Part shown: positions 5,174-26,468 of the stretch, in pieces | How positions within the stretch are numbered: position 1 is the stretch's first letter | Layout: each line of letters starts with the position of its first letter | DNA from: a virus | IMG/VR virus record: IMGVR_UViG_3300021255_000047 | Location: 1 to 33,517 of that record | Length of the DNA: 33,517 bases | Reading direction: 5' to 3' (one strand) | Program-made: the position numbers and the translations under genes | Notes under the pieces: model-generated | Databases searched by the model: none | Seen by the model: only the letters and a program-made list of their open reading frames with translations | What the model was told of the DNA's origin: nothing

Positions 5174-5548
5174 TTATGCGCGGAGGAATTCCGCCGTAAA
5201 ATTCAAAAGGATTCTCCGGATCCCATCGTCCGGATCTGTCAGGCGCTGGCTGAACGGTGTCCCTCTTGTGACCCAGATATATCCGCCCGTTATCGGAAGG
5301 ACAGCGCCGCCGTATCCGATCGCGTCGTATATCTGGCCGGCCTTTTGCGTGATCTCCCTCCACTTTTTCGACCGATACCAGAGGCTTGCGCTTATTGCGA
5401 CCGGTGCGTCCAGCTCCGATTCTGACCAGTTATAGGTCAGGCGCGGTATTGCCGCATCCTCCGGGACGGTGTTCTCGTCGTAGGCCGGAAGGCCAAAGCC
5501 GGACAAAAAGTCTTGCCAAGTCTGGGCCGCGTCTTTTAATTCCGCCAT
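5174..5548 (-). CDS. Tail completion / tail terminator-like protein
   Basis: 124-aa ORF directly upstream of the major tail gene. The call rests on position and size. Confidence 0.45.
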   Translation of the reverse strand: MAELKDAAQTWQDFLSGFGLPAYDENTVPEDAAIPRLTYNWSESELDAPVAISASLWYRSKKWREITQKAGQIYDAIGYGGAVLPITGGYIWVTRGTPFSQRLTDPDDGIRRILLNFTAEFLRA

Positions 5549-5556
5549 GTTCCCTC

Positions 5557-5907
5557 CTATACCGGCAGCGTGTATTCTTCCGCTTGCACCTGCCTCATGT
5601 CGAGCGTCGCCGAATTTGGCGTGTAGTTATCGTCGCCGTCAGAGGTGACTCGGAAGATTTTCCCGTCGCGGTCTCGCCTTATGACGTCGTGATACTGGAG
5701 ATTGATCGCTCGGCTTGTCGTGATAGTATACAGCGCCGTTGCTCCGGCCGCCTGTGCTGTCAGCGCTTCCACGCTGCTGTCATATCTCGCGTTCGCCTCG
5801 ATCGCGGCTCCTTCGACCCAGACCGTCTCGATTCCGCCGTATCCGTCCGGCTGCGTTCTCCTGTCCAGCATGGTGAAAGCTTCGTATCCTTCGGATAACA
5901 GACTCAT
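5557..5907 (-). CDS. Head closure / head-tail adaptor-like protein
   Basis: Start MSLLSEGYEAF at 5907 forms an ATGA overlap with the stop of the upstream gene. Position is between the capsid and tail genes. Confidence 0.45.
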   Translation of the reverse strand: MSLLSEGYEAFTMLDRRTQPDGYGGIETVWVEGAAIEANARYDSSVEALTAQAAGATALYTITTSRAINLQYHDVIRRDRDGKIFRVTSDGDDNYTPNSATLDMRQVQAEEYTLPV

Positions 5908-6338
5908 CCGTTGTTTATCCTCGCTTTCTTCCACTTCCTAAGCCTCGACGCGAAGTGCCCCTGCCAGGTCAGATTTCCGTCGGCTCCGGTCTCCTTCGAG
6001 TACGAATAGCCGCCGAAGCTCTCCGACTGATATGGTCCCTCCAGCACATCTGCGTGGCTGGCTGTCCAGGTCTTTATCTCGGACGCCAGAGCAATGACCG
6101 CCGGGGGGACGGCCATCGCCCATATTGCGCCCTCGAAGCTCTCATCTGTCAGATTTGATGCCGGGTATTGATACACGCCGTCGTTGAATACGGATCCGAC
6201 TATACGGAAGTATTGCCCTTCCTGAATGAAAGGCAGGTCAATGCTGCCGCCATCTATGGTGTAGACTCCAAGATGTATATCTTCTCCCTTGTCTTTAAGG
6301 AAGTAGTTGTTTAGCTCATGGCAAAGTTCGGTCAGCAT
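5904..6338 (-). CDS. Head-tail connector-like protein
   Basis: 144-aa ORF immediately after the major capsid gene. Positional call. Confidence 0.4.
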   Translation of the reverse strand: MLTELCHELNNYFLKDKGEDIHLGVYTIDGGSIDLPFIQEGQYFRIVGSVFNDGVYQYPASNLTDESFEGAIWAMAVPPAVIALASEIKTWTASHADVLEGPYQSESFGGYSYSKETGADGNLTWQGHFASRLRKWKKARINNG

Positions 6339-6357
6339 TGATCTGCTCCTTTTTTAT

Positions 6358-7266
6358 CTATTCTCCGCCACCGGAAGTAGCGGCGGTGATGGTGCCCTTT
6401 ACGACGCCGGCCGCGTATTCGACCAGGAACTGAATTCCGCTCATTACGAGAGACTCAATCTGCGCCCTCTCCTCGTTCTGATAGCCGGACTTGATGCCGA
6501 CGAAGCCGGTCTCATCGGTGGTCAGCTCGAATGCCTGCGCGATGTCGCCGCTCATGGTCAGGTAGTACATGATGAGGTTGTTCTTCGCGGTTGCGATGAA
6601 GGTGCCCGCGGTGACCTTGCTGCTCATGATCACGGTGCCGAGTCCGAGGAAGTTCTCGATGTAGTTCATTCCGAATGCGGTCTGGAGCGTGATGTTCGCC
6701 TTGCCGAGATAATCGGCCACATCGAGCGGATTCACGAAGTAGACGGCCTCTGCGGTGTCGTCCTCGAACTTGACCTGGAGCTGGCCCCATGCGTCAGCAA
6801 GTGCGGCCTGCAGGCCCACGCCGGTGGCGGTTGAGCTTCCGGTGATGGTGCCATTCAGGAAGGTGAACATGTCAGTTCTGATTCCCTTCTGAACGTCGAG
6901 GAGGAGCGCCGCGTCGGTCTCTCTTACAGCTGCATTATAGCCGGACTTTTTGATGCTCTCCGCAGACGCGGCCTTTCTCCACTTCTTGAGAGTGATCTCT
7001 CCGACTGCGGTCTTGGTCTGCGCGTACTTGGAAAGCGGGATGATCTCGCCCTCGGGAACAGCGCCGTTCTGCAGGGTGCCGCTGGTGCTGTACACATACA
7101 TCGTGGTGCCTTCCTGCATCGGGACCTTTCTGGTCACGCCGAGCGCTTCGACGAGCTTGGCGAGAGAGTTGTGCGCGAACTGCGTCACGAAGTCGATCTC
7201 CCTTACTCTTGCGAGGTCAGTTGCCTTTATAAGATTGGTTTCGGGAGTGGTGACTACATTTGCCAT
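6358..7266 (-). CDS. Major capsid protein (HK97-fold type)
   Basis: 302-aa ORF following the scaffold gene. Size and sequence character (MANVVTTPETNLIKATDLARVREIDFVTQF...) are typical of Bacillota siphophage major capsid proteins. Confidence 0.8.
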   Translation of the reverse strand: MANVVTTPETNLIKATDLARVREIDFVTQFAHNSLAKLVEALGVTRKVPMQEGTTMYVYSTSGTLQNGAVPEGEIIPLSKYAQTKTAVGEITLKKWRKAASAESIKKSGYNAAVRETDAALLLDVQKGIRTDMFTFLNGTITGSSTATGVGLQAALADAWGQLQVKFEDDTAEAVYFVNPLDVADYLGKANITLQTAFGMNYIENFLGLGTVIMSSKVTAGTFIATAKNNLIMYYLTMSGDIAQAFELTTDETGFVGIKSGYQNEERAQIESLVMSGIQFLVEYAAGVVKGTITAATSGGGE

Positions 7267-9241: not shown

Positions 9242-10618
9242 TCATTCCTCGCCTTCGTCCTCTTCGTTGCCCAGCGCAAATCGCGACATCTCCGCCGCGG
9301 ACTTCTGCTGCTGGACCTCTTCGAGCTTGTCAATGTCTCCGTTTACTTCCAGAATCTTGCTGGTGACGTATTCGTCCGAAAGGTGCTGCGCGGCCATTAC
9401 GACCGAGGAGATCTCCTCCGCCTTGTTAACGATCATCGAGCGCGTATATGTCGGCGAGTCCTCTATTCCTATCAGCTGCAGCAGGCCGAGAATAAATCTC
9501 GTGACGTGCTGTTCAAAAAGATTTGCCTTTCCGTTCAGCGGCTCGTATGCCGCCTTAATCTGCGTCGCGGTTGCCGCTCCTCCGGATATTCCGCGAACGT
9601 CCAGCGCCATGAAATCATCGAACAGCTGAGTGCGCAGCCTCTCCAGCGCTGCTTCGTTTGCGGTGAACGGTGCCTCGACGGTGTGCGCATCAACCTCTCC
9701 GTCTCCGTCTCCCGGGTGCGCGACGTGGGTCCGGCGTATCTGGTCGAGGAACTTCGCGTCGTCGATGTCGTCCATGTCTCCGCAGTTTTTCAGAATCCAG
9801 TATATTATATTCCCGTCGTCGATGTTGTTTATCATCGTGCTGGCCATCAGGTCATACGCATCGATCACTTCCTGTCCGCCGAGCAGCTCGCTCTGTTTGT
9901 TTATGTTGTAAAAGGGAATAATCGGGAAGCCGGGATAATTCCTATCGCTGATCACGACTTCGCCTCCGACTTCCGAGGTTTCGACAATCTCGATATACGC
10001 TCTCTTTTCCTGCAGGATTTCGAGGTCGCTCTCGTCCTCCCTGCGTATATATTCTGTGTATCCATCCTCTTCGTACAGCGTGCAGCGGAGAGGCTTTGTG
10101 CTGTCTATCTGCCAGAAGCGAATTCCTGCACGGTGCATCCCGGTGTTTTCGTCGTACAGCGGAACGTAAGACGGCTCATCCACTCCGGCAACGCCGAAAG
10201 CTTCCAGGTGGTCTTTGTTCCAAAAGCCGAAGGAGACGCCGGCGTTCTGTGCCTTCGTCGCCAGATCCTGAATCGCTATGTCAAACTTCGCCCCGCCCAG
10301 CTTGGCCTTTGTTTCTTTGTCTTTGAAGGAGACGCCGTTGCCGAGCAGATACTGGACCAGCTGCGTCACGAAATAAAAGTAATAGCGGCTGGGAATCTTG
10401 TTGTTTGCCGAGTATACATCCGGCACAGCTCTTCCGACGTAGTCATAAAGGAATTTCTGCGCCTTCATGATCGTCGGGTTTTCGTGGCGGTAATAGAGCT
10501 CCGCTTTGTACGCCATGCGATACAGGCTGCTCGATTTGTGCTCGGCAATTGCCGCCAGGATGAAGTCCTGTCTATCCTTTTCCGCTGTCAGCTCTGCCAG
10601 ATCGTTATAAGTTTTCAA
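9242..10618 (-). CDS. Portal protein (SPP1 gp6-like)
   Basis: 458 aa, TTG start overlapping the terL stop, acidic C-terminus, canonical position after the large terminase. Confidence 0.85.
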   Translation of the reverse strand: MKTYNDLAELTAEKDRQDFILAAIAEHKSSSLYRMAYKAELYYRHENPTIMKAQKFLYDYVGRAVPDVYSANNKIPSRYYFYFVTQLVQYLLGNGVSFKDKETKAKLGGAKFDIAIQDLATKAQNAGVSFGFWNKDHLEAFGVAGVDEPSYVPLYDENTGMHRAGIRFWQIDSTKPLRCTLYEEDGYTEYIRREDESDLEILQEKRAYIEIVETSEVGGEVVISDRNYPGFPIIPFYNINKQSELLGGQEVIDAYDLMASTMINNIDDGNIIYWILKNCGDMDDIDDAKFLDQIRRTHVAHPGDGDGEVDAHTVEAPFTANEAALERLRTQLFDDFMALDVRGISGGAATATQIKAAYEPLNGKANLFEQHVTRFILGLLQLIGIEDSPTYTRSMIVNKAEEISSVVMAAQHLSDEYVTSKILEVNGDIDKLEEVQQQKSAAEMSRFALGNEEDEGEE

Positions 10619-11889
10619 AATTCATCCCTCCCGCGCTCTCTGTTCCTGCGCTTGTCATCTCTTGGAACTAACCGTTTTGTTTTTACAAAATACCTCATGC
10701 TGTCCATGTCGTGGTCGTTGACCTTTATCGGCGTATCGTCCACGGCGTTGTCCAGCCAGACGTATCCTTGCACTTCCTTTTTCCAATCCTTCAGCTCTGG
10801 GCTAACCTTTATCAACCCGCGCTTCATCGCCGTTGCCGTCTCCCGGATCCCGTCAGATACCGCGTTATCCGCCTTTATTACTCCGTACATTCTGCGGCCT
10901 ATGTCCTCCGCCCGCCTCCTGCGGAGCGTTTCGATGAACGATGCCGCCGACGGGTCTATTATAATATCTATCGGCCACGGAACTCTTGCCGGCTCATCCT
11001 CCCGGTCAAACTTCCGGAAATATCTGCGCAGCCATCGCTCTATGTCGTCCGCGTATTCTTCGTCCGTCTTTTGGGTGCCTTCGTCTCGGCCGGAATAGTA
11101 ATAGTTATCCACGGAATACCAGACGTTCCCGTGTCTCTCCCAGAGTAGCGCTGCGAATGCGTTTTGTGTTCCGTAGTCCATGCTTACGCAGTATTCTTCG
11201 CCCCATCCCTCCGGTGCGGCTTCGATCGCGTCCTCATACATGGGATAGATCAGGCCCTCAGCCAGCGTCCACTCGCCTTTTATGTATCGGCCGTAATAGA
11301 CCGTTCCTTCGTACTCCTTGCACAGCTGCTCTACAAATCGCGCCGGTAAAAAAGGATTATCAAAGATCGTATATTTCTGGTGGTATATGTCGAGGCCTTC
11401 GTTCTCGATAAATGCCTTTAGCCAGTGCCCTGGGCTTTCCGGGTTGCACGCTCCGTCAAAGCAGGAATATGGCTTGTCGAGTCGCGACTTTAGCATTTCG
11501 AAAACTTCCGCGTTCCATTTCGCGATTTCGTCTCCGTAGCAGTATTTTATAGACGCGCCCTGTATCTTCGACACTTGGCTTACCTTCTCCGCGCCCAGGC
11601 AGTATACCGGGACGCCGCATACCATCGCAATGTTGCGGCTGTTTATCGTGCCGACCAGCTGGTTTCCGAACTGCTCCCGCATCGGCTGCAGGACGTTCCT
11701 CTCTACTGTTTCACGTGAAACACCGAGAATTACATTCAGGCCTGCCTCTTCTCGCACCGCTCGCAATCTATACGGGACGATGAAGTTTACATCGACGTAT
11801 GTTTTGCCGGAGCGGACCGCGCCAACCTTAAAATTCCATCTGCTGTTCGCGTTCTTTATGTACTCATACTGTTTATCGCTGAACTGCAT
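10615..11889 (-). CDS. terL: Terminase large subunit (PBSX-type)
   Basis: 424 aa with Walker A GAVRSGKT near the N-terminus. Overlaps the terS end. Confidence 0.9.
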   Translation of the reverse strand: MQFSDKQYEYIKNANSRWNFKVGAVRSGKTYVDVNFIVPYRLRAVREEAGLNVILGVSRETVERNVLQPMREQFGNQLVGTINSRNIAMVCGVPVYCLGAEKVSQVSKIQGASIKYCYGDEIAKWNAEVFEMLKSRLDKPYSCFDGACNPESPGHWLKAFIENEGLDIYHQKYTIFDNPFLPARFVEQLCKEYEGTVYYGRYIKGEWTLAEGLIYPMYEDAIEAAPEGWGEEYCVSMDYGTQNAFAALLWERHGNVWYSVDNYYYSGRDEGTQKTDEEYADDIERWLRRYFRKFDREDEPARVPWPIDIIIDPSAASFIETLRRRRAEDIGRRMYGVIKADNAVSDGIRETATAMKRGLIKVSPELKDWKKEVQGYVWLDNAVDDTPIKVNDHDMDSMRYFVKTKRLVPRDDKRRNRERGRDEF

Positions 11890-12247
11890 CTGACTTTACC
11901 TTCTCCAGCAGCTCATCCAGCTTGCTCAATTCCTCGGCGGCTGGATCCTCCACGGCCTTGGCCTCTCCGCTCAGCTCCAGAATGGCACGAAAAGCATTGA
12001 CCGCGTTCCTGTCTTTGCTATTGCTCGCGATCTTAAACATTGAAGCGATCAGAATATCTGCGCCCGAGGCTTCCTTGCCGTTCTTGTCCGTGAACGTCCC
12101 ATCCAGCACGGCTTGCAACGCCTTTTTCAGCGTGGCCTTTTCGCGCCTGGCCTTTCCGCTTGCAATTCCGCCCCTCTTGGCTTCTTCACGGCTTAGCTCA
12201 TATCCTCCAGGCTGGCCGCCCGGTTTTAAATTATGCTCATTCGCCAT
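11873..12247 (-). CDS. terS: Terminase small subunit (putative)
   Basis: Start MANEHNLKPGG at ATG 12247 is preferred over the TTG at 12298, which lies inside the promoter. Basic N-terminus; immediately upstream of and overlapping terL. Confidence 0.55.
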   Translation of the reverse strand: MANEHNLKPGGQPGGYELSREEAKRGGIASGKARREKATLKKALQAVLDGTFTDKNGKEASGADILIASMFKIASNSKDRNAVNAFRAILELSGEAKAVEDPAAEELSKLDELLEKVKSDAVQR

Positions 12248-12269
12248 ATAAAAAGTCCCTTCTATGCTG

Positions 12270-12298
12270 ATTATATAGCATAAAAGGGATTTTATCAA
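12270..12298 (-). promoter_or_regulatory. Sigma70-type promoter upstream of terS
   Basis: Minus strand reads TTGATA-N17-TATAAT, about 20 nt upstream of the terS ATG. Confidence 0.55.
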
Positions 12299-12304
12299 AA
12301 TATG

Positions 12305-12370
12305 TTAATTTATAAGCTCCGCCTTCCGGCCGGTGTAGTTCTCCCAGCGCTGCAGGATCACGTCAATCAT
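12305..12370 (-). pseudogene. Relic 3' end of an ancestral ParB-MTase gene (21 codons)
   Basis: MIDVILQRWENYTGRKAELIN* matches 10 of 18 positions of the current MTase C-terminus (SVIVNRWLNFTGRKDEIF). Its GC content looks like the backbone, unlike the AT-rich DNA just upstream. Confidence 0.6.
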
Positions 12371-12396
12371 TATTCCACCTTGCCTTCCAACCGTAA

Positions 12397-13026
12397 TTAT
12401 CGTTTATATCTTTCACAACAATATATTTTTTCTTTCCATTGTGACACATCACCGCCACGTTCCATGATGATTGACAATATATAATATTCTCGCATATGAA
12501 AGAAATAAGCAAACACATCATCCTCGCTTGTTGTACTATATTTCCTATGTTTCATGGTTACGGCTCTTGTAGCTTCATTGAAAAATTCGGCTGTTTCCTT
12601 GTCTGTTTTGCCCTCTGCTATAATCTCTGGCATACCCATCTTTTCGCCACCATTAAACAAAACAGGACATATGTAATTAGGCTCATAATTCTTTTGGGCA
12701 TAATTGAGCATAGCAAGCGTATAATCATTGAGATAATAAGCAACTATGCAATCACCGCCCGTGGAAGTATTGTAGCCTTGGTCAATCGTTTTTAATTCCG
12801 CAATCAAATATCTTTCAAGCGTTTCTGCCTGCTCTTTCGATATGCCGTCAATGATGATATTATGCGTTACGTTCTCCCATCCATACTTGTTTATGGCTCT
12901 TGCAATTTTAGGCTGAGTTTCGTACCCTTTACCGTTTCTCCATCGTTTTTCAGCATCGCATGAAATACCAATATATTTTTTGCCATTCGGGAAAATATGC
13001 TCATAAACGCAATAGTTTTTATTCAT
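12397..13026 (-). CDS. GIY-YIG family (homing-type) endonuclease
   Basis: Start MNKNYCVYEHIFPNGKKYIGISCDAEKRWRNGKGY (GIY...YIG...R motif spacing as in I-TevI-like enzymes). The ATG at 13026 overlaps the MTase stop by 8 nt. The gene is AT-rich. Confidence 0.7.
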   Translation of the reverse strand: MNKNYCVYEHIFPNGKKYIGISCDAEKRWRNGKGYETQPKIARAINKYGWENVTHNIIIDGISKEQAETLERYLIAELKTIDQGYNTSTGGDCIVAYYLNDYTLAMLNYAQKNYEPNYICPVLFNGGEKMGMPEIIAEGKTDKETAEFFNEATRAVTMKHRKYSTTSEDDVFAYFFHMREYYILSIIMERGGDVSQWKEKIYCCERYKR

Positions 13027-14587
13027 CAAACACCTCGTCATAAGTGAGTTTCTGCCCGTCACGGATGCAGAATATTTCATCTTTTCTGCCTGTAAAATTT
13101 AACCACCTGTTTACGATGACGGAAACGTATCTTTCATCAAGCTCCGCCATATAGCATTTTCTGTTTAACTGTTCACAGGCTATTAGTGTGCTACCACTAC
13201 CGCCAAATACATCAAGGACAATCTCGCCCTCTCTACTACTGCTCTTTATCGCTCTACTGCATAAGGCTATCGGCTTTGGTGTTGCGTGACCGCCTGTGTG
13301 TTCTCTTTCGTCTTTTCCTGCTCTGTCAAAGTGCCACACGTTGTTTTGGTTGTCGTGAGTATTGTCAAAATATGCCCGTGTTTCATACCATTCTTTCTTG
13401 ATTTCGTCATATTCTTTCTTGATTTCGTCATATTCTTTCTTGATTTCGTCATATTCTTTCTTGATTTCGTCATATTCTTTCTTGAATGCGTCATTACCAT
13501 TTCCACGACAGAATTTCTGTATTTTTTGATAATCATCTTTCTGAATTAATCGAGGTTGTTTCTGCGTTCCGTCTCGATTTAATGTCCAATGCTGTGCGAT
13601 GCTTTTGTAACCGCATATTTCATTTAAATCTTTTTCCGTTAATCCGCTTTTTTGTAATTCCTCTGTCATATATTTAAGATATACCCCAAGAGTTTCAGAA
13701 GCGTCTAATATGCCATCTGCACCTTGTACTCCCATCATCACAAACAAGCACTTTTCGTCTGCAATCGGGTACATTCTAAAATCTTCTGACAACTGCCCTT
13801 GTCCGTTCCCTTTGTCCCAAGTGATAAGGTTCCGAAATGTTATCTTGTTCTCTCTCGCCATCGGTTTCAAGATATTGCTGTAAATATCCATCAGCGGTTC
13901 ATCAATCCCCCAACAATACCAAGAGCCATTGTCTTTTAACGCTCCGAATGTCAGCGGAATCCATTGGCGGTTGAAGTCGAGCAAATCATCAAAGTTGAGG
14001 TTGTCATTCAGAACACCCTCGTTCTCTTTCTTCATGCCATAGGGAGGATCCGTGAAAACAAGGTCGGCCTTTACCCCATCCATAAGCCTATCAATGACCT
14101 CCGGATCCGTGCTATCTCCGCAAATCAGCCGGTGCTCTCCAAGCTGCCATATCTCTCCGGCCTTGCAGCGAGTCTCTACTTCCTCCGGGATCTCTACCTC
14201 CTCGACCTCTTTTGGCTCTTCATCTTCCATGTCAAATCCGAAGTCCGACATATCAAATTCGAAGATCTCCGAGATCTCCGCGTCCAAAAGGTCAAAGTCC
14301 CATTCGCTTTCGTTCGTCTTATTATCCGCCAGGCGCAAAGCCTTTATCTGTTCGTCGGTCAGATCGTCTGCTCGAACGACCGGGACGCTGCTCATTCCGA
14401 GCTTCTTCGCTGCCAAAAGTCGCCCGTGTCCTATAACGAGGACGTTGTTCCGGTCTACCACAAGCGGCTGCCTAAAGCCGAATTCTTTTATGCTGTTTGC
14501 TATGTGTTCGACCTGCTCCTCTGGGTGTTTCTTCGCATTCTTGTCGTATGGTACAATCTCCCCTATTGGCATATTTATTATTTCCAA
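13019..14587 (-). CDS. ParB-like nuclease domain fused to an N6-adenine/N4-cytosine DNA methyltransferase (beta class)
   Basis: N-terminal ParB/Srx-like block (IVPYDKNAKKHPEEQVEHIANSIKEFGFRQPLVV...GHGRLLAAKKLG). Motif IV TDPPYG comes before motif I VLDVFGGSGST. Confidence 0.9.
   Translation of the reverse strand: MEIINMPIGEIVPYDKNAKKHPEEQVEHIANSIKEFGFRQPLVVDRNNVLVIGHGRLLAAKKLGMSSVPVVRADDLTDEQIKALRLADNKTNESEWDFDLLDAEISEIFEFDMSDFGFDMEDEEPKEVEEVEIPEEVETRCKAGEIWQLGEHRLICGDSTDPEVIDRLMDGVKADLVFTDPPYGMKKENEGVLNDNLNFDDLLDFNRQWIPLTFGALKDNGSWYCWGIDEPLMDIYSNILKPMARENKITFRNLITWDKGNGQGQLSEDFRMYPIADEKCLFVMMGVQGADGILDASETLGVYLKYMTEELQKSGLTEKDLNEICGYKSIAQHWTLNRDGTQKQPRLIQKDDYQKIQKFCRGNGNDAFKKEYDEIKKEYDEIKKEYDEIKKEYDEIKKEWYETRAYFDNTHDNQNNVWHFDRAGKDEREHTGGHATPKPIALCSRAIKSSSREGEIVLDVFGGSGSTLIACEQLNRKCYMAELDERYVSVIVNRWLNFTGRKDEIFCIRDGQKLTYDEVFDE
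13391..13495. repeat. Tandem 21-bp repeat: 4 perfect copies plus 1 degenerate copy
   Basis: ttctttcttgatttcgtcata x4, in frame, encoding (EYDEIKK)n within the MTase. Confidence 0.95.
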
Positions 14588-14602
14588 TGCTGCGCCTCCT
14601 TT

Positions 14603-14872
14603 TTAATATATCTCCTTAAATATGTCATATCCGACCTCATCTGTGATCATTCGCTCTATATCAGAAAGGCTAATCAGCCCATCCTCAACCGCGCCCATGT
14701 ACCTTCCGAGGCGGTCCCAGAGGCGCTGTATCTCCTCCCGGCTCCATCCGAATTCCTCCACGCAGGCGGAAAGATAAACGGAAAGATTCTTCCTGCTGAC
14801 GTCCCGGGTGTATTTGTTCAATTCGTAGTGCGTGAACGTGTAAACGTTCTTTTTCTTCACTGGCTTTTTCAT
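14603..14872 (-). CDS. Hypothetical protein (89 aa)
   Basis: Compact ORF in the co-directional gene string; no recognisable motif. Confidence 0.45.
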   Translation of the reverse strand: MKKPVKKKNVYTFTHYELNKYTRDVSRKNLSVYLSACVEEFGWSREEIQRLWDRLGRYMGAVEDGLISLSDIERMITDEVGYDIFKEIY

Positions 14873-14874
14873 AG

Positions 14875-15063
14875 CTACAATATAAAGTCTGTTATATCCC
14901 GGCTGTCAGACTTCACCATTTCTTTCAGCTCAGCGATCTCTTTCCGGAGCTCCTTGTTCTCCGTCATTAGATTCTGGACGCCTTCGATGTATCCTCTTAT
15001 CAGCGAATGCAGCCTGTCGTTGTCTCTTCGTAGATCCTGAATAATCTTGTCTTTTTCTGTCAT
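14875..15063 (-). CDS. Hypothetical coiled-coil protein (62 aa)
   Basis: Tightly spaced ORF with heptad-like charged sequence. Confidence 0.4.
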   Translation of the reverse strand: MTEKDKIIQDLRRDNDRLHSLIRGYIEGVQNLMTENKELRKEIAELKEMVKSDSRDITDFIL

Positions 15064-15066
15064 TGC

Positions 15067-15339
15067 CTATCCCTCCGGATGTATTGCCGACCATAGCCGG
15101 TTGAGCTTCACGCCTTCCCACTCCGTCACGGCCTCGAAGTTATTGAATATAAACCCGAGCTGTGAAAGCATGATCCGAACGTCCGCCATTTCTTCCGCCA
15201 GATGTTCCTCGTTCCCTTTTCCGCGCAGAATCTTCGTCAGCTCTTTCTGGAGCTCCGACAGCTCCTCGATCGCGACTATTATTTGATGCTCTGTCCCGTA
15301 TGTGTCGATCGCTGCCGTTATTATGTCGTAATTTGTCAT
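15067..15339 (-). CDS. MazG-like nucleotide pyrophosphohydrolase (90 aa)
   Basis: Start MTNYDII at 15339 (ATGA overlap with the MTase stop, AGGAGG upstream). Carries the EExxE...AEEMADV pattern typical of MazG-type all-alpha NTP-PPases. Confidence 0.6.
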   Translation of the reverse strand: MTNYDIITAAIDTYGTEHQIIVAIEELSELQKELTKILRGKGNEEHLAEEMADVRIMLSQLGFIFNNFEAVTEWEGVKLNRLWSAIHPEG

Positions 15340-16574
15340 TCTGAAAACCTCCTCTTTGTGACGGCGATTGGGAATTCTTCGATTTCGGACGCCCACAAAG
15401 CCGAGCCTTTGCCGTTGCACTTCTCCCAGCAAAGAGAGAAACCGCCTATCCCGTCAAACAACGAAGCCATCGTCGCCGGGCGCTCGTACTGTGCCGATAT
15501 ACGGCGGAGCAGCCAAAACCAAAAGGGTAAGGCGATACTATTTCCGAGAGCCTTATAACGCGGGCTGTCCGATGGTTTGTGAAGCTTGCCTTTTGTATCC
15601 GTCCATTCCCCGAGGTCTGTCCAGTTGTCAGGGAAGCCCTGCAGGCGTTCGCATTCAAGTGGCGTCAATCTGCGGACATTGCTATTCATCACGGCGTTTG
15701 GCCCTCTTGATATAAGCGTACTTGATTGATCTTCTGATATGGCGAAGTCGTACAATGCGTTTTTTCCCTGATTGAACGCCGCTCGGTCAATGCCGAATAC
15801 AAGGTCCGTGCCATCCTTATAGTCTCGTGCCTTTATGGCCGAAGTAGAGCCATCCGGGCGGTTGTTGTGATCCCCAGTTATCGTCGGAGCCTGCACGCCG
15901 TCGCCGTTGCCTCTGGCATCATAGACCTGAACGACAGCGTGCCTGTCAGTAACATTCAGCGTGTGCGAAGATCCCTCTCGAACGCCTATTCCGTTCTGCG
16001 AGGTGTTCCTGTCGACCACATGCCCTTCGATGCAAAACACGGACTGGTTATTAAAAGTGGAAAGCGCTCCGGTGTGCTCATTCTGAATCAGTATTCCTTT
16101 GCCCCCCCCCTGGCTTTCCGGCTCTCTCTTGAAATGAGATTGCGCTTCCAGGGCTATCCGTAGCGCCTCGGGCAGCTCTTTCCCTCTCCGCTCCGCTCTC
16201 CTTAAAATCCCCTCGCACGCCTTCGCGCTCAAAGAGTATTTCGGAAGCGGAGAATCCTCCAAAATCTGCGACAAGCGCGATGCGTTTTCTTCGCTGGGGA
16301 ACTCCCCAAAACTGCGCGTCGTGTACTCTCCAGCAGACGGAAAACGGGATCCCGTCGGGGCTATATCCGAATATCCCTCCGGCTTTGTCCCATCTGCCCC
16401 CCCTATCAGGTAAAGGAACGTCGGGCGCTTCGGGGCTTGCGATTTTGACGATTTCCGAGAGAACGGCTTGGAAGTCTTGCCCTTTGTTGCTGGAGAAGGC
16501 TCCGGGGACGTTTTCCCAGACCATGTATCTTGGTCGAATATTGAAAGCTGCCCGGTGATTTGTTCGTCTGTCAT
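15336..16574 (-). CDS. C5 DNA cytosine methyltransferase, part 2: TRD, motifs IX and X, then motifs I-II at the C-terminus
   Basis: RRLTPLECERLQGFPDNW (IX) and RYKALGNSIALPF (X), followed by MASLFDGIGGF...WASEIEEFPIAVTKRRFSE* (I and II). AAGGAG lies 10 nt before the ATG at 16574. Confidence 0.8.
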   Translation of the reverse strand: MTDEQITGQLSIFDQDTWSGKTSPEPSPATKGKTSKPFSRKSSKSQAPKRPTFLYLIGGADGTKPEGYSDIAPTGSRFPSAGEYTTRSFGEFPSEENASRLSQILEDSPLPKYSLSAKACEGILRRAERRGKELPEALRIALEAQSHFKREPESQGGGKGILIQNEHTGALSTFNNQSVFCIEGHVVDRNTSQNGIGVREGSSHTLNVTDRHAVVQVYDARGNGDGVQAPTITGDHNNRPDGSTSAIKARDYKDGTDLVFGIDRAAFNQGKNALYDFAISEDQSSTLISRGPNAVMNSNVRRLTPLECERLQGFPDNWTDLGEWTDTKGKLHKPSDSPRYKALGNSIALPFWFWLLRRISAQYERPATMASLFDGIGGFSLCWEKCNGKGSALWASEIEEFPIAVTKRRFSE

Positions 16575-18893: not shown

Positions 18894-19082
18894 TCATCGA
18901 TATATCTTTTTCAGATCCTTCGTCCTGTATTCGCCCTCGATCTTTAGGCGCGGCCTGCAATCGATCGCTGTCCAGACCGTGCTGACGCTTACCCTGTGCG
19001 CCGTCGCGATCTCCTTGAGCGTGAAGCCCTGGCACCACTCTTTATACATTCTGTCCTTTTCAAGTTGTGTAAGTCCCAGCAT
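18894..19082 (-). CDS. Small HTH DNA-binding protein (sigma-70 region 4 / LuxR-like)
   Basis: GFTLKEIATAHRVSVSTVWTAI helix-turn-helix. Strong SD AAAAAGGAGG. First gene after the iteron region. Confidence 0.55.
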   Translation of the reverse strand: MLGLTQLEKDRMYKEWCQGFTLKEIATAHRVSVSTVWTAIDCRPRLKIEGEYRTKDLKKIYR

Positions 19083-19097
19083 GTATACCTCCTTTTT

Positions 19098-19300
19098 CCC
19101 GGTCAGTCTTTGGCGGGAACTCTTGCGGGAATGTCAAACCTATTGATTTTTTAACCTTGTTCCCGGTTTCCCGTTTGTTCTCGGTGTTTTTTGTCTCTCA
19201 CACGCGGTAAAAATATATACAAGGTGTTGTGCGTTTTATATATATACTCTCTATATATAGGTTGTTGTTTTTACCGGGTACGACCGGGAACATGGGAACA
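19098..19300. promoter_or_regulatory. Iteron cluster flanking an AT-rich core: putative replication origin and/or regulator-binding region
   Basis: Eight copies of CGGGAAC-like heptamers. Plus-sense copies at 19114, 19126, 19275, 19285 and 19293. Inverted copies at 19159, 19167 and 19177. They flank the TATATATA-rich core at 19205-19262, immediately downstream of the helicase gene. Confidence 0.45.
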
Positions 19301-19323
19301 AAGTTATATATAGATATATCTTT

Positions 19324-21180
19324 TTAGAAGGGAATATCATCCGCGGCGAAGAATTCCTGCTGTATTGGTACATCTTCCGGGGGTTGCCTCCTGATACATA
19401 CTGTATTAAGCACCGAGTTCCCGATCCTGGCCTTTTTTGTCCGGCGGTCCTTATCGCTGACCAGAATGTCGCGTCTCTTTGCCCAAGCCAGAAACGCCGT
19501 CCCATTAAACCCTGCCTGCTGCAGCTCGCGGTCGAATACCGACTTTATAATATATGCGTACTCTTCGTCTATCTTGCCCCAGACTTCGGCTTTGTACTCG
19601 CCGTATAGATCCGGGACGAAGTGCACGGTGTTCCTTACGAGCAATTCGTATATGTACTCCAGCGCCCGGACGTTCTGGTTGACGTCCTCTTTCTTCGTCA
19701 TGATCGCGGCCATGTCTTTTATAGTGAGCGCGTTCCCGTCTTTGAATAAAAGCTCCGTGGCGAGCGCGTCTGCTGCCAGTATCGCCGATGCGCTTGCGGC
19801 CTGTTTCTCGGTGCTGTCCTCTTTGAGCAGTTCCCTGTAAAAGGCTTTCTGTAAATCGTTTACCTTTTCAAACATTCCCGGCTGCTGGAGGTAAGCTATA
19901 AACTCCCGCCCTGCGTGGCCGTAGTTTTCTTTTACTTCCGCGGAAAGCCAGACCAGATCGCTGTATACTTTCTCCGCGCATTCAAATTCGATGATCCTGT
20001 TTACGGCTCCGCCTCCGCTGTTCGCATTGCTGATCGGGTGCTCGCCGTTTGTTATGATGCAATTCTTCCAGGTGGTCTGCCTCTGTAAACCTCCGAGCTT
20101 TGCTCCTCGGGTCCTTCCGACTCCTTCTGTGAGCTGGTAGATCATTCGGTCAAAGTCTTTGACGCCCTGGCTCGACTGTATCTGCAGTTCGTCGATGCAC
20201 ATCGGGAGGCTGTTCAAAAATGATGCCGTCATTTCCTGCCCGACTGTCGTGCTGTTAAAGGTGCTGATATAGTCTCCCAGCTTCGGGCTTGCCCATACGC
20301 TGGCCGCAACCATCAGGCCGACGGTCTTTCCTGTCTCCGTTCCGCCCCATGCGTGAAGGAAAAAGGGCAAAAGGCCGCAAGGCTCAAGTATTACGCTTGC
20401 GAAGGAAGCGGCCAGAAAGAGCCGCCCGGGTGATTTCTCCGCCCGGAGCTTTTTCATCGCCTGGATCCACTTGTCGCGGCTGCCGGCCGGCTTAACCGAG
20501 TTGAAGATGTGCCGAAAGTTCGTTTCTCCGTCAAAGATCAGGTCCTCGACGTATGGCGAGAAACCGTGCGCTACAACCCAGCCGAGCCTTCCGACCGACT
20601 TTTGCTCCGGTATCAGCTCGTAATTCAGCTGTTCTATATCCATCAGGTATGTCGAGAGCTGTTTGGCGTTCTCGCTGTTTACCATTATCCCGAACGCGGC
20701 CAGCTGCAGGATCTGCGAGCTCGAAGCGAGCGTGCTCTTTTCCGCGATGATGCTCCGCCAGGTCTTTCCCTTCCTGTATGCAATCTCCAGCCGTTCTTCT
20801 CCGCTGTCTATATTTATCAATCTGCGGACCGGCATGATCGCGTGTCGGCAGATCATGTTTTCGTATCCGAAGCGATCCACTGTCAGGACGCCGTATTCGT
20901 CGCAGATGTACTCCCCAGAGAAAAGCTCCATCGGCTGATCGGTAAAGTTCGTCGCGTTGTCCATTATCACGCCGCGGGCCTTCTGCTGCATCTCCAGGTA
21001 GCTGTTCCAGAGCGTCATGAAGGTGCGAACTCCGACCGATCCGGCCTGCGCCTTCATCCTCTGGCAGAGCTGCTGGAGCTTGAATTTGTCGTCCTTGTAT
21101 TGATACAAGTAGTCGTAAGGCTTGCTTGTATTCAGATATTCTTCCGCCGTGTATTCCGGCAGGTTTATAATCTCATTCAT
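19324..21180 (-). CDS. DUF927 / SF3-type replicative helicase (primase-associated)
   Basis: Start MNEIINLPEY at 21180 (GGAG upstream). Walker A AWGGTETGKT and a Walker B-like MCIDEL. The C-terminus ends AADDIPF. Confidence 0.75.
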   Translation of the reverse strand: MNEIINLPEYTAEEYLNTSKPYDYLYQYKDDKFKLQQLCQRMKAQAGSVGVRTFMTLWNSYLEMQQKARGVIMDNATNFTDQPMELFSGEYICDEYGVLTVDRFGYENMICRHAIMPVRRLINIDSGEERLEIAYRKGKTWRSIIAEKSTLASSSQILQLAAFGIMVNSENAKQLSTYLMDIEQLNYELIPEQKSVGRLGWVVAHGFSPYVEDLIFDGETNFRHIFNSVKPAGSRDKWIQAMKKLRAEKSPGRLFLAASFASVILEPCGLLPFFLHAWGGTETGKTVGLMVAASVWASPKLGDYISTFNSTTVGQEMTASFLNSLPMCIDELQIQSSQGVKDFDRMIYQLTEGVGRTRGAKLGGLQRQTTWKNCIITNGEHPISNANSGGGAVNRIIEFECAEKVYSDLVWLSAEVKENYGHAGREFIAYLQQPGMFEKVNDLQKAFYRELLKEDSTEKQAASASAILAADALATELLFKDGNALTIKDMAAIMTKKEDVNQNVRALEYIYELLVRNTVHFVPDLYGEYKAEVWGKIDEEYAYIIKSVFDRELQQAGFNGTAFLAWAKRRDILVSDKDRRTKKARIGNSVLNTVCIRRQPPEDVPIQQEFFAADDIPF

Positions 21181-22331: not shown

Positions 22332-22601
22332 TTATCTTTCGACGATTTCAAGTAAGTCCAGTTCCCTTATGCGGGAAGGGTTGATGCTCTTCTGCCGAAA
22401 AAGCCAAGCAGGGATTAACACCTCTGCGTTCCCTACTTCGTTGGCTTCCCCAACTATGATTTGGGATTTCGGGAACCAAGCAATCGTATCGTTAGCCTTG
22501 GTGTATCCGCCGTCAACGGTGAGTGCGATGGCCTTTTCTGTCGTTGCTGGAAGATAGTGCTCCATCGGTAATGTAATCCAGCCTCTATAATACTTTTTCA
22601 T
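22332..22601 (-). CDS. Hypothetical protein (89 aa)
   Basis: First ORF downstream of the consensus promoter at 22647-22675, with AGGAGG upstream. Confidence 0.55.
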   Translation of the reverse strand: MKKYYRGWITLPMEHYLPATTEKAIALTVDGGYTKANDTIAWFPKSQIIVGEANEVGNAEVLIPAWLFRQKSINPSRIRELDLLEIVER

Positions 22602-22646
22602 TTTCTTACCTCCTGTGTTCGGTTGGTTTCTGTTCTTTATGGTTTT

Positions 22647-22675
22647 ATTATAGGCTATCTAATCCTATATGTCAA
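22647..22675 (-). promoter_or_regulatory. Consensus sigma70 promoter
   Basis: Minus strand reads TTGACA-N17-TATAAT, preceded by an AT-rich upstream tract (to about 22705) that resembles the one at 26068-26095. Confidence 0.65.
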
Positions 22676-22701
22676 TATATTTTCATATATTTTTATATAT
22701 T

Positions 22702-23169
22702 TTATTCCGCCCCGAGTAGCTCGAGGATCCTTCGCGGCGTGCTCCTCTTGTCGCAGAATAGGAACTCGACGCCGTAGCTGATATGCGTCTGATATATCCG
22801 CTCCATCAAATACCGGCCGGAAACCGGCGAGTGTTTTGACTGCCAGGAGGCGACGTCTGGTATGGTCTTTACCTTTCCGCCGCATTCGCAAAGCACGATC
22901 AGCTTCAAGCGCTGCTCCCTTGCCCTGCGGACCTCTTTCATGAAGCGTGCGTGGTCCTTTGGGTTTGTGAGATTTTGCCGCAGCTCGTCCAGATCCTGCT
23001 TGCGGTCAATGGTAATATTCCCGCCTTCCATCATATAATCTCCCACATCAAGCTTCCGGACCGTCCAATCGCAATGAGCGGAGAAGTAAGCCGCCATGCG
23101 TCCTCCGTCTCCGCTCTGTGTCCACTTTTCCCTGCTGTCAACGATCAGTTTAGAATGGGATGTCGTCAT
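22702..23169 (-). CDS. ERCC4-type (XPF/Mus81-like) nuclease
   Basis: IVDSRE ... VGDYMM ... IDRKQDLDEL matches the ERCC4 GDxn-ERKxxxD signature. Confidence 0.65.
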   Translation of the reverse strand: MTTSHSKLIVDSREKWTQSGDGGRMAAYFSAHCDWTVRKLDVGDYMMEGGNITIDRKQDLDELRQNLTNPKDHARFMKEVRRAREQRLKLIVLCECGGKVKTIPDVASWQSKHSPVSGRYLMERIYQTHISYGVEFLFCDKRSTPRRILELLGAE

Positions 23170-25513: not shown

Positions 25514-25833
25514 CACATCACCTCCGCGATGAAGCGAACGATCGCGTCTCTTGCGTCTGCTACATCACCGGCCGAGAGTTCCTCCGCCAGCTTGTCTATG
25601 GTGTCGACCACCGCTGCCTGGCAATCCGGGCAGATGTCGTCTCCGTCCTTGCCGTTGTAGTATTTGCCGCAAACCGCGCACTTGGCCGCTTCCTCCCACC
25701 AGTCACTTCCGCACTCTGGGCAGACCCGCTCTTCGTATTCAGGCGGCTCGGTCTCGCTCCCTGCAAAAACCTTTTTTCCGCCGACGAGCTGTTCTTCTTC
25801 GAAGATTGCTCCGCACTCTAAGCAAATTAACAT
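25513..25833 (-). CDS. Double zinc-ribbon protein (106 aa)
   Basis: CLECG...CPECG and CAVCG...CPDC motifs. Confidence 0.5.
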   Translation of the reverse strand: MLICLECGAIFEEEQLVGGKKVFAGSETEPPEYEERVCPECGSDWWEEAAKCAVCGKYYNGKDGDDICPDCQAAVVDTIDKLAEELSAGDVADARDAIVRFIAEVM

Positions 25834-25834
25834 A

Positions 25835-26014
25835 TTATTCCTCCTTTTCGATGATTAATAGAATTTTGGCTGCGCTAATTTTCCTGATCGGCAGATCTTT
25901 TTCGCATCTGTTTATAGTCAGCCAGTTAAGCTTGCAAAGCTTTCCCATTGCCTCCTGGCTGAGGCTGTGCGCGACTCGGTAGTCGAAGCATCTTTCGCCT
26001 ATCGTCTTTTCCAT
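25835..26014 (-). CDS. Cro/XRE-like HTH regulator (59 aa)
   Basis: Manual ORF, below the track cutoff: MEKTIGERCFDYRVAHSLSQEAMGKLCKLNWLTINRCEKDLPIRKISAAKILLIIEKEE. It is the first gene after the early promoter, with AAAGGAGG upstream. Confidence 0.6.
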   Translation of the reverse strand: MEKTIGERCFDYRVAHSLSQEAMGKLCKLNWLTINRCEKDLPIRKISAAKILLIIEKEE

Positions 26015-26037
26015 GCCATACCTCCTTTGTTATGTTT

Positions 26038-26067
26038 ATTATAACGCTATAATAACATATATGTCAA
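26038..26067 (-). promoter_or_regulatory. Consensus sigma70 early promoter
   Basis: Minus strand reads TTGACA-N18-TATAAT. The inverted repeat TTATTATA-N4-TATAATAA overlaps the -10. There is an AT-rich upstream tract. Confidence 0.65.
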
Positions 26068-26099
26068 TATAATTTTATATAATTCTATATATTTTCGCA

Positions 26100-26130
26100 C
26101 TAAAAAACCGGGATTGCTCCCGGTTAAAAA
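26100..26130 (-). terminator. Rho-independent terminator closing the accessory cassette
   Basis: Minus strand reads AACCGGGA-GCAA-TCCCGGTT followed by TTTTTT. The stop codon of gene 26124..26468 lies in the stem. Confidence 0.75.
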
Positions 26131-26468
26131 TTGAGCTTGCGTATCGTGGCTGCGTACAGCCTCGGGTTGAATACCTGCACGGCGGTCATTAGCTCGTCTA
26201 TGACTGGCCATACCCGTGCCGGGTCCCTGCCGTTGATCGTCTCCGAGAATTCTGTTCCGCTGTCGTAATATATCTCTGTTTCGGTCTCGCTCGGAGGATC
26301 TCGGAAGGAATATTCGGGCATCGGTGCCGCCTCCGGCATCTGGCCTTTGCCTTGCAGGTGGTCGAGTATTATGTAGAACGCCGCCAGTTTCACGCAAGTA
26401 TTCGCGTTTGGGTTTCTTACTCCCTGGCACTCAGCGATCGCCTCCATCAAATCCTTTTCAGTTATCAA
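26124..26468 (-). CDS. Conserved phage hypothetical protein (114 aa)
   Basis: TTG start 5 nt after AGGAGGTG. The N-terminal block EAIAECQGVRNPNANTCVKLAAFYIILDHL is recalled from other Bacillota phages; function unknown. Confidence 0.6.
   Translation of the reverse strand: MITEKDLMEAIAECQGVRNPNANTCVKLAAFYIILDHLQGKGQMPEAAPMPEYSFRDPPSETETEIYYDSGTEFSETINGRDPARVWPVIDELMTAVQVFNPRLYAATIRKLNF

Follow-up and report, generated by a model that had tools for sequence, protein, structure and literature searches.

A probable homing-endonuclease cassette in the 3′ end of a phage ParB-methylase gene, with a substitute gene end and a relic of the resident one

The subject of this analysis is a 33,517-nucleotide (nt) stretch of viral DNA, IMG/VR record IMGVR_UViG_3300021255_000047 (analysed whole, positions 1 to 33,517, and called the window below), and in it the minus-strand region between a gene for a DNA methylase fused to a ParB domain and a terS-like gene. 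We consider it probable that in this region a homing-endonuclease cassette of the free-standing kind has lodged in the 3′ end of the phage ParB-N6/N4 methylase gene. A foreign substitute tail would keep the methylase reading frame open and contain, in its final codons, the start of a GIY-YIG gene; the cassette would replace four codons of the resident gene, whose last ~20 codons would remain downstream as an untranslated relic. The phage context is given by the TerL and terS-like genes of the window and by portal and head genes in its relatives. These relatives are metagenomic contigs from IMG/VR, ENA and JGI (L numbers below, with P numbers for proteins). A megablast of 11600-15100 against 50,697 GenBank phage records gave no match, so the comparative evidence is wholly metagenomic. 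An exact-pattern scan of 185,579 species genomes for the junction block described below found none, and a protein scan of genomes found relatives of at most 62-63% identity, mostly in metagenome-assembled genomes of Clostridia and Bacilli, and no cassette.

The extent of the inserted unit follows from comparison with L124, a contig that has no nuclease gene at this site. The alignment of the window with L124 ends at 13137/13138 and picks up again at the relic, and virtual excision of 13137-12367 restores an L124-like gene end minus four codons (PKYC), followed by the promoter and terS; the inserted unit is therefore 771 nt long (Table 1). At the insertion point the A-type allele of L124 has the sequence around GAACTTGACCCGAAATATTGCGACGTAATT / GAACTTGACCCGAAATATTGCGACGTAATTTTGC. 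The preliminary description of this DNA, made from the letters and their open reading frames (ORFs), had read the 21-codon ORF beyond the nuclease gene as a homologue of the methylase C-terminus. A profile of 79 short methylase C-termini, which we call A-type, was searched against all six-frame peptides of the window, and this proper test of significance upheld the homology: the top match was the peptide at 12403-12308, with E = 2.5e-13 and 45.5 bits. The tail in use by the methylase, which we call B-prime, scored only 17 bits against the same profile (E = 2e-4). Because of these scores we take the relic to be a real methylase C-terminus, of another type than the tail in use, with which it is identical at 21 of 39 nt in register. 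It is the last ~20 codons of the resident gene, left before the terS promoter, and the right crossover lies just upstream of them, as had been proposed; this junction recurs in at least eight other contigs. The relic is identical to the L124 tail at 42 of 60 nt, though the adjoining methylase core is 97-99% identical, so core and relic differ in history.

The substitute tail has its closest counterparts elsewhere, with 94-98% nt identity to the tails of L093, L094, L095 and L125. B-prime tails with neither nuclease gene nor junction nor relic occur in L125 and L167-L170, and the idea that this tail is always linked to the nuclease gene was dropped, these contigs carrying the tail alone. They plausibly represent a lineage that has the B-prime tail as its native one and in which the nuclease gene formerly lay just between genes.

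The nuclease gene had been described as a free-standing GIY-YIG homing endonuclease, and its own start codon together with the database matches agree with this: the ORF scores 25.4 bits against PF01541 (cutoff 22.6), E = 1.9e-16 against the homing-endonuclease family phrog_314 of PHROG, and E = 0.002 against the I-TevI catalytic domain (1MK0), with residues 14-88 aligned. In the 1MK0 alignment the YIG/YVG motif and the Arg (RW) are identical columns and the motif Asn (GYN) is conserved; the conserved Glu is read from the sequence ETLERY, the aligned E/R pair being one column off, and the first GIY-YIG motif is VY, in ...YCVYEH.... The 8-nt overlap of the nuclease ATG at 13026 with the methylase TAA (13021-13019), noted before, is seen directly in the sequence ...GTGTTTGATGAATAAAAAC. 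At the nucleotide level the gene is 96.3% identical to its homologue in L093, 91.5% in L094 and 86.8% in L095, and the L093 identity holds despite a TerL that is only 66% identical in amino acids (aa) to that of the window; the nuclease gene is mobile relative to the phage backbone. The cassette is far more similar between phages than are their backbones.

The related contigs display the site in several states. The GIY-YIG gene with junction and relic is found in L094, L095 and L132, and a 243-aa zinc-ribbon HNH gene with junction and relic in L004, L081, L083, L084, L135 and L141 (cut copies in L129-L131). The cassette is empty in L127 and L174, and L003 keeps a 5′ remnant of the GIY-YIG gene, its first 13 codons only. 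L124 (protein P0002), L011 and L006 have no cassette and no nuclease gene, and there the ParB-methylase ends in an A-type tail (for example YCDVILQRWENFTGQKAVLLI and stop) right before terS and TerL; that nuclease-free relatives should have a methylase gene with its end precisely here had been implied by the preliminary description. At this one site the GIY-YIG gene is thus absent from L124, L011 and L006 and deleted in L127, where (14170-14300) junction and relic follow directly on the tail stop and ATGAATAAAAAC, which is the first 12 nt of the GIY-YIG ORF. In L174 (2915-3000) the substitute tail is followed by the A-type relic and then by a ParB N-terminus fragment, with no nuclease gene. 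A further state is that of L086, the closest backbone relative (TerL 89%), in which a stand-alone ParB protein and a Mom-like gene (phrog_1384, E = 1e-46) replace methylase domain and cassette (5254-6592); the space between ParB and terS seems to be a slot in which DNA-modification genes vary. We dropped L086 as a candidate for the ancestral cassette-free state; it has no methylase domain and is therefore unable to show the native tail, and among the comparison contigs no backbone relative close enough to carry an identical native tail was found.

Next to the relic lies a junction block, (G)TTGGAAGGCAAGGTGGAATAATGA, of 24-25 nt (12391/12390-12367), that is common to GIY-YIG and HNH cassettes. 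It is present in L081-L085, L094, L095, L127, L129-L132, L135 and L141 and is nearly invariant across contigs, whereas the relic is different in each. In the window the 11 nt that precede it (GATAATTACGG) are those of the HNH version, and 12401-12363 matches the last 12 codons and stop of the L004 HNH ORF at 38 of 39 nt; that ORF matches PF13391/PF01844 and phrog_1271, and in the sister cassettes the HNH gene encodes an HNH domain and CxxC motifs like those of a zinc ribbon. Since the window retains these 12 codons, the HNH gene was probably displaced by the GIY-YIG gene, and the simplest reading would be that the HNH cassette came earlier and the GIY-YIG gene as a later replacement. The cassette account of the preliminary description stands as regards junction and relic, foreign tail and mobile nuclease, but it had missed the HNH remnant and the shared junction block, from which a two-step history follows. 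Separately, we observed that in L139 (3100-3300) the HNH ORF reads through, in frame, to a methylase tail of the long type, joined at conserved RW codons (...YKARWQTLTGKEAVRQDGIKFNDL and stop), and that an HNH protein of L142 (1050-1150), 49% identical, ends in ...KKRWEEME and stop. The ARWNND at the end of the HNH gene in the cassettes may itself be left over from an older methylase tail, and the insertions would then be nested.

We infer the following order of events. The nuclease gene would at first have lain between a B-prime-tailed methylase gene and terS; then a single illegitimate event would have joined it to an A-type-tailed methylase gene, generating both junction and relic. The cassette would thereafter have spread among phage backbones via double-strand-break repair, for which the homology arms would have been the conserved methylase core (nearly 100% identical around CEQLNRKCYM) on the left and, on the right, the ~60-nt tail that later became the relic. 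Lastly, in the lineage of the window, the GIY-YIG gene would have replaced the original HNH gene, the last 12 codons of which stayed behind. By analogy with the intronless homing of the T4 Seg and Mob nucleases and with the mobile-ORF hybrids of fungal mitochondria, both discussed below, the GIY-YIG protein is predicted to cut cassette-free A-type alleles near ...ELD-PKYC-DVI..., and the divergent substitute tail would give carriers immunity from such cutting.

A number of points weigh against this scenario. Cleavage activity and target are predictions, and residues 95-209 of the GIY-YIG protein contain no DNA-binding domain recognisable in Pfam or PHROG. Behind the order from HNH to GIY-YIG there is a remnant of only 39 nt, and the distant HNH homologues of L142, L143/L144 and L145 are without the DNYGWKARW ending. 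A close GIY-YIG homologue lies upstream of a ParB-methylase gene in L096, and that of L093 has neither junction nor relic, so the spread may not be strictly site-specific. In L095 (3649-5360) a 30-codon tail fragment, GIY-YIG gene, junction and relic are present with no methylase gene, and the methylase is therefore dispensable for persistence of the cassette. Any single metagenomic locus, moreover, may be an assembly chimera.

How much of the methylase gene belongs to this history is a separate matter, for the gene is a layered mosaic. Its identity to L124 and L125 changes in steps (Table 1), with a breakpoint at ~13765 (27 of 284 against 2 of 270 mismatches, Fisher p = 1e-6). The ParB part is no more than 70% identical to L124 and 68-77% identical to L086, L003 and L011, and in L086, for all its closeness in backbone, it is the only part in common with the methylase gene of the window. 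Conserved blocks I and II reach 80-99% nt identity across many contigs that range from 0.30 to 0.54 in G+C content (GC) and have a TerL that is distant or undetectable. Third-position identity to relatives in conserved codons is 32-51% in the ParB part, where it is saturated, ~25-70% at codons 141-180, 67-84% at codons 181-280, and 67-92% from the DPPY motif on. When the parts were searched separately, their nearest protein relatives differed, as the preliminary description had considered: P0011, P0012 and P0019 for the ParB part (76-77% aa); P0001-P0004 and P0010 for the variable insert, where each of the five is 100% identical, and for block II (85-100%), though the ParB parts of these five are only 44-74% identical to that of the window; and P0017 for the tail (98%), with an unrelated insert. 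Between insert and block II, the KKEYDEI repeat is present in four copies in the window, three in P0001, two in P0003 and P0010 and one in P0002 and P0004, in alleles that are otherwise near-identical. These identities make the catalytic region from about DPPY on a young, horizontally exchanged module, in which the conserved blocks flank a variable, specificity-like insert, and the latest exchange, 13764-13138, has nearest relatives other than those of the cassette.

Ordinary homologous recombination at the conserved blocks between co-infecting phages or prophages, with a swap of specificity modules, might account for this mosaic, the nuclease gene being a bystander that explains the last ~770 nt only, and to us the chances of this are about even. 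Dozens of contigs that are nuclease-free at the site share blocks I and II at 80-99% identity, one and the same insert is found in alleles whose tails are A-type or B-prime and whose ParB domains differ greatly, and the replacement of the L086 methylase domain by a Mom-like gene indicates a slot that is generally variable. Such recombination leaves relic and junction unexplained, and for the cassette it is compatible with the insertion we favour; nuclease-induced breaks could still stimulate exchange, and their repair with no gain of the nuclease gene would yield alleles like that of L124. At the other end, substitute tail and 25-nt block together might act as a ‘landing pad’ for the swapping of unrelated nuclease families, with nuclease-induced breaks as the main force that homogenises and spreads the methylase module; this we regard as a tentative idea that is rather unlikely to be right.

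The preliminary description had instead proposed that one donor segment, with DPPY at one end, the GIY-YIG gene at the other and the methylase 3′ part between them, came in by a single homing-type conversion, and it drew on base composition. The tract 12390-14050 is indeed more AT-rich than the backbone, with a GC of 0.394 against 0.537 elsewhere in the window. No other 1661-nt stretch has so low a GC (mean 0.528, standard deviation 0.035), and the tract is ~4 standard deviations under the mean. By segment, GC is 0.49 in the ParB part, 0.56 at 14174-14051, 0.376 in the cassette, 0.53 in the relic and 0.55 in terS. The start of the tract at DPPY holds in total GC but not at third codon positions, where GC is ~0.6 up to about codon 280 (near 13750) and 0.2-0.4 thereafter. 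The synonymous-site break is for this reason placed at ~13750, and a compositional break at DPPY was dropped; the dip in total GC at 14050-13750 probably reflects amino-acid content, as the third positions show no matching drop. A single donor segment could appeal to the continuity of the tract in total GC, to the climb of third-position identity at about codon 180, which is DPPY, and to L125, in which this insert and block II occur together with a B-prime tail (96% nt), a combination that makes such a donor conceivable. Yet sharp breakpoints lie at ~13765 and ~13137 with different nearest relatives on each side, the shift in third-position GC is at 13750 and not 14050, and L093, which has the closest GIY-YIG relative, has nothing in common with the window between ~14100 and 13200. 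The nuclease-free, A-type L124 has 13764-13138 at 97-99%, so the methylase core need not have come with the nuclease. We consider the single conversion improbable and have given it up in view of the layered identities, the differing nearest relatives and the core shared with L124; the DPPY boundary is real, as the rise in third-position identity indicates, but it is of a general kind and not the crossover of a nuclease-gene donor segment. The part demonstrably tied to the cassette begins at ~13137, and the AT-rich methylase core fits module exchange as well as it fits co-conversion. Further short AT-rich islands were seen at ~19050-19450, 22400-22850 and 25800-26200 (GC 0.38-0.43 in 300-nt windows, rest of window 0.53).

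It is also conceivable, at low probability, that the nuclease genes serve the phage, for example as a terminase-associated packaging HNH enzyme or as a nuclease against competitors or defences. Zinc-ribbon HNH nicking enzymes beside terS/terL are widespread, with a proposed role in packaging (PMC3592412), and the site is directly upstream of terS. Where an intact zinc-ribbon HNH gene beside terS would stand, the window has only 12 codons and a stop, although intact copies exist at the sister loci L004, L083, L084 and L135; close relatives are nuclease-free (L124, L011, L006) or have lost the nuclease (L127, L174), and near-identical copies reside in divergent backbones. For GIY-YIG enzymes, we know of no role in packaging. 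A local tandem duplication in which the gene copied its own 3′ end and the copies then diverged, with no foreign donor, would agree with the homology of the two tails (10 of 18 aa), but it is effectively refuted and most improbable, because the tail in use matches tails of unrelated backbones at 94-98% nt identity and the relic at only 21 of 39 nt, the two differ in GC (0.39 in the tail, 0.53 in the relic), and the relic exceeds the tail by 28 bits on the A-type profile. Hardly credible is a self-splicing group I intron or an intein with the relic as second exon: the 5′ start of the GIY-YIG ORF and the relic share one reading frame in the empty L127, but an Rfam scan of 11800-14700 found no intron family at E ≤ 1, the methylase ORF has a homologous tail of its own and ends ahead of the nuclease gene, and the nuclease ORF has its own start and no in-frame fusion, so it is not an intein.

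Table 1. Features of the cassette and its surroundings in the window, and nucleotide identity of methylase-gene segments to L124 and L125
Feature	Position	Strand	Remarks
Cassette	13137-12367	-	771 nt, GC 0.38; substitute methylase tail, GIY-YIG gene and 25-nt junction block
Substitute B-prime methylase tail	13019..13137	-	left cassette end; ...RYVSVIVNRWLNFTGRKDEIFCIRDGQKLTYDEVFDE and stop, also given as ...YVSVIVNRWLNFTGRKDEIFCIRDGQKLTYDEVFDE and stop
Free-standing GIY-YIG homing-endonuclease gene	12397..13026	-	209 aa; PF01541, phrog_314/7168/5123, 1MK0
3′ remnant of zinc-ribbon HNH gene	12363..12401	-	39 nt, includes junction block; GATAATTACGG...TGA, encodes DNYGWKARWNND and stop
Relic of resident A-type methylase C-terminus	12305..12370	-	(M)IDVILQRWENYTGRKAELIN and stop; profile E = 2.5e-13
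ParB_N and N6_N4 methylase fusion	14587..13019	-	522 aa; PF02195 and PF01555 (E = 2e-37)
ParB_N domain and acidic linker, 5′ part of ParB-methylase gene	14175..14587	-	PF02195; resident backbone layer
Methylase catalytic region	13138..14174	-	PF01555, E = 2e-37; DPPY 14056-14045, FGGSGS 13207-13190
Conserved block I	~14050-13767	-	within methylase catalytic region
Variable insert	~13722-13480	-	within methylase catalytic region
Conserved block II	13389-13138	-	within methylase catalytic region
21-nt tandem repeat	13390..13494	-	5 copies, (KKEYDEI)x4 and partial; Tandem Repeats Finder, 97% matches
Identity segment	14551-14052		70% to L124; L125 alignable only in patches, 76-77%
Identity segment	14050-13767		90.5% to L124/L125
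Identity segment	13764-13495		99.3% to L124/L125
Identity segment	13389-13138		97% to L124, 95% to L125
Promoter-like site TTGATA-17-TATAAT	12298-12270	-	consensus scan, 11/12 matches; between relic and terS
Terminator-like 13-bp stem-loop and T run	12289-12256	-	overlaps -10 element of promoter-like site before terS
terS-like gene (MANEHNLKPG...)	11873..12247	-	right flank of site, resident backbone; 84% aa identity to L086
TerL	11889..10615	-	downstream of terS-like gene

All genes of the region are on the minus strand, in the order ParB-methylase, GIY-YIG, 21-codon ORF, promoter-like site, terS-like gene and TerL. The methylase has DPPY (codons 178-181) before FGGSGS (codons 461-466), as a ParB-fused beta-class N6/N4 methylase should. 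Its variable insert is positioned like a target-recognition domain, and from this position alone the label is putative. The terS-like gene, whose PHROG match is to an unannotated family only, is assigned by gene position; its L086 homologue precedes a TerL that is 89% identical to that of the window. At the place corresponding to the promoter-like site, the L124 sequence reads TTGCCA-17-TATAAT before terS. Upstream, at 15336-16574, a 412-aa ORF has motifs like those of C5-cytosine methylases (...RRLTPLECERLQGFPDNWT...GNSIALPF...), and it is on motifs only that the likeness stands; if it is a C5 methylase, the order C5 methylase, ParB-methylase, nuclease, terS would be as in a Bacillus cereus prophage (PMC3592412).

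Elsewhere among the contigs, additional GIY-YIG genes or fragments were noticed in L124 (2413-2715), L094 (6426-6710), L171 (4730-5155) and L172 (4774-5028), ~44-45% identical where measured and placed shortly after either terS or the first nuclease gene; homing-endonuclease genes have a hot spot around terS. By eye, the cassette of L095 comes directly after an SSB-like gene, and an endonuclease-like ORF of 188 aa stands between terS and TerL. L162 (3459-4220) has an interruption of ~760 nt exactly at the ParB/methylase domain boundary, and L009 (680-3330) has two ParB-methylase genes in tandem.

The nearest known counterpart is not from phages. In fungal mitochondria, mobile-ORF (mORF) hybrids are known in atp6, atp9, cox2 and nad3 of Glomus sp., the atp9 mORF being a GIY-YIG endonuclease (PMC3630166), and in the atp6 of Allomyces macrogynus according to 1994 work as cited there (ref. 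48 in PMC3630166). In these hybrids a foreign in-frame C-terminus is followed by an endonuclease ORF and, beyond it, by the native C-terminus that was displaced; the native copy resembles close relatives whereas the inserted copy is divergent (PMC3630166). The window has the same architecture (tail 13137-13019, GIY-YIG 13026-12397, relic 12370-12305), with a relic that equals the backbone in GC and a tail of much lower GC that recurs nearly identical elsewhere. Unlike the mORF hybrids, it is from a bacteriophage, the host gene is a DNA methylase and the relic is only ~20 codons long; in addition, the same cassette ends hold either of two unrelated nuclease families, and empty cassettes occur. 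As its context is phage and not mitochondrial, the window is an analogue and not a member of the mORF class.

Among phages, T4 and its relatives have two families of free-standing homing endonucleases, Seg with a GIY-YIG domain and Mob with an HNH domain, which are described as performing intronless homing with co-conversion of flanking markers (PMC2988022, PMC2330249, PMC2790892). The window is like them in having a free-standing GIY-YIG gene beside a conserved phage gene, a presence/absence polymorphism and flanks that co-travel. To our knowledge, the T4 elements are mostly intergenic, and we know of none with a substitute gene end or a target-gene relic. The cassette differs from them in having both, and it is known here from sequence. 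In T4 relatives segH or hef can take the place of mobC or mobE, a swap of nuclease families at one locus. Likewise, GIY-YIG and HNH genes occupy one site in different genomes here, but with the 25-nt junction block and the substitute tail in common and with a 39-nt HNH remnant. Zinc-ribbon HNH nicking endonucleases beside phage terminase genes, and prophage ParB-methylase fusions, have also been described (PMC3592412). The window shares with that neighbourhood the likely C5 methylase (from motifs only), ParB-methylase fusion, nuclease gene, terS and terL; it differs in having only 12 HNH codons, and its relic together with the empty sites speaks for insertion and loss over a fixed packaging gene. 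Among beta-class N6/N4 methylases, target-recognition domains are swapped between conserved motifs. The reassortment of the variable insert between two conserved blocks among alleles resembles such exchange.

This is a well-documented example and not a new principle, the kind of element being known already from T4-like phages and fungal mitochondria. A single site, in uncultured gut and rumen-type phages, displays most stages of the homing-endonuclease life cycle, namely invasion, tail co-transfer, replacement by a second family, decay and loss, and the gene hybrid with a stranded native C-terminus known from fungal mitochondria is now found in bacteriophages. For annotation, short ORFs such as 12370-12305 beside nuclease genes are readable as insertion scars, and phage methylase genes as mosaics with separate histories for each part. 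If nuclease-induced breaks drive the methylase mosaic, there would be a link between selfish elements and the spread of anti-restriction functions, and if the landing-pad idea were true, a selfish element would be driving the spread of an anti-restriction methylase across phages of hosts with GC of 30-54%.

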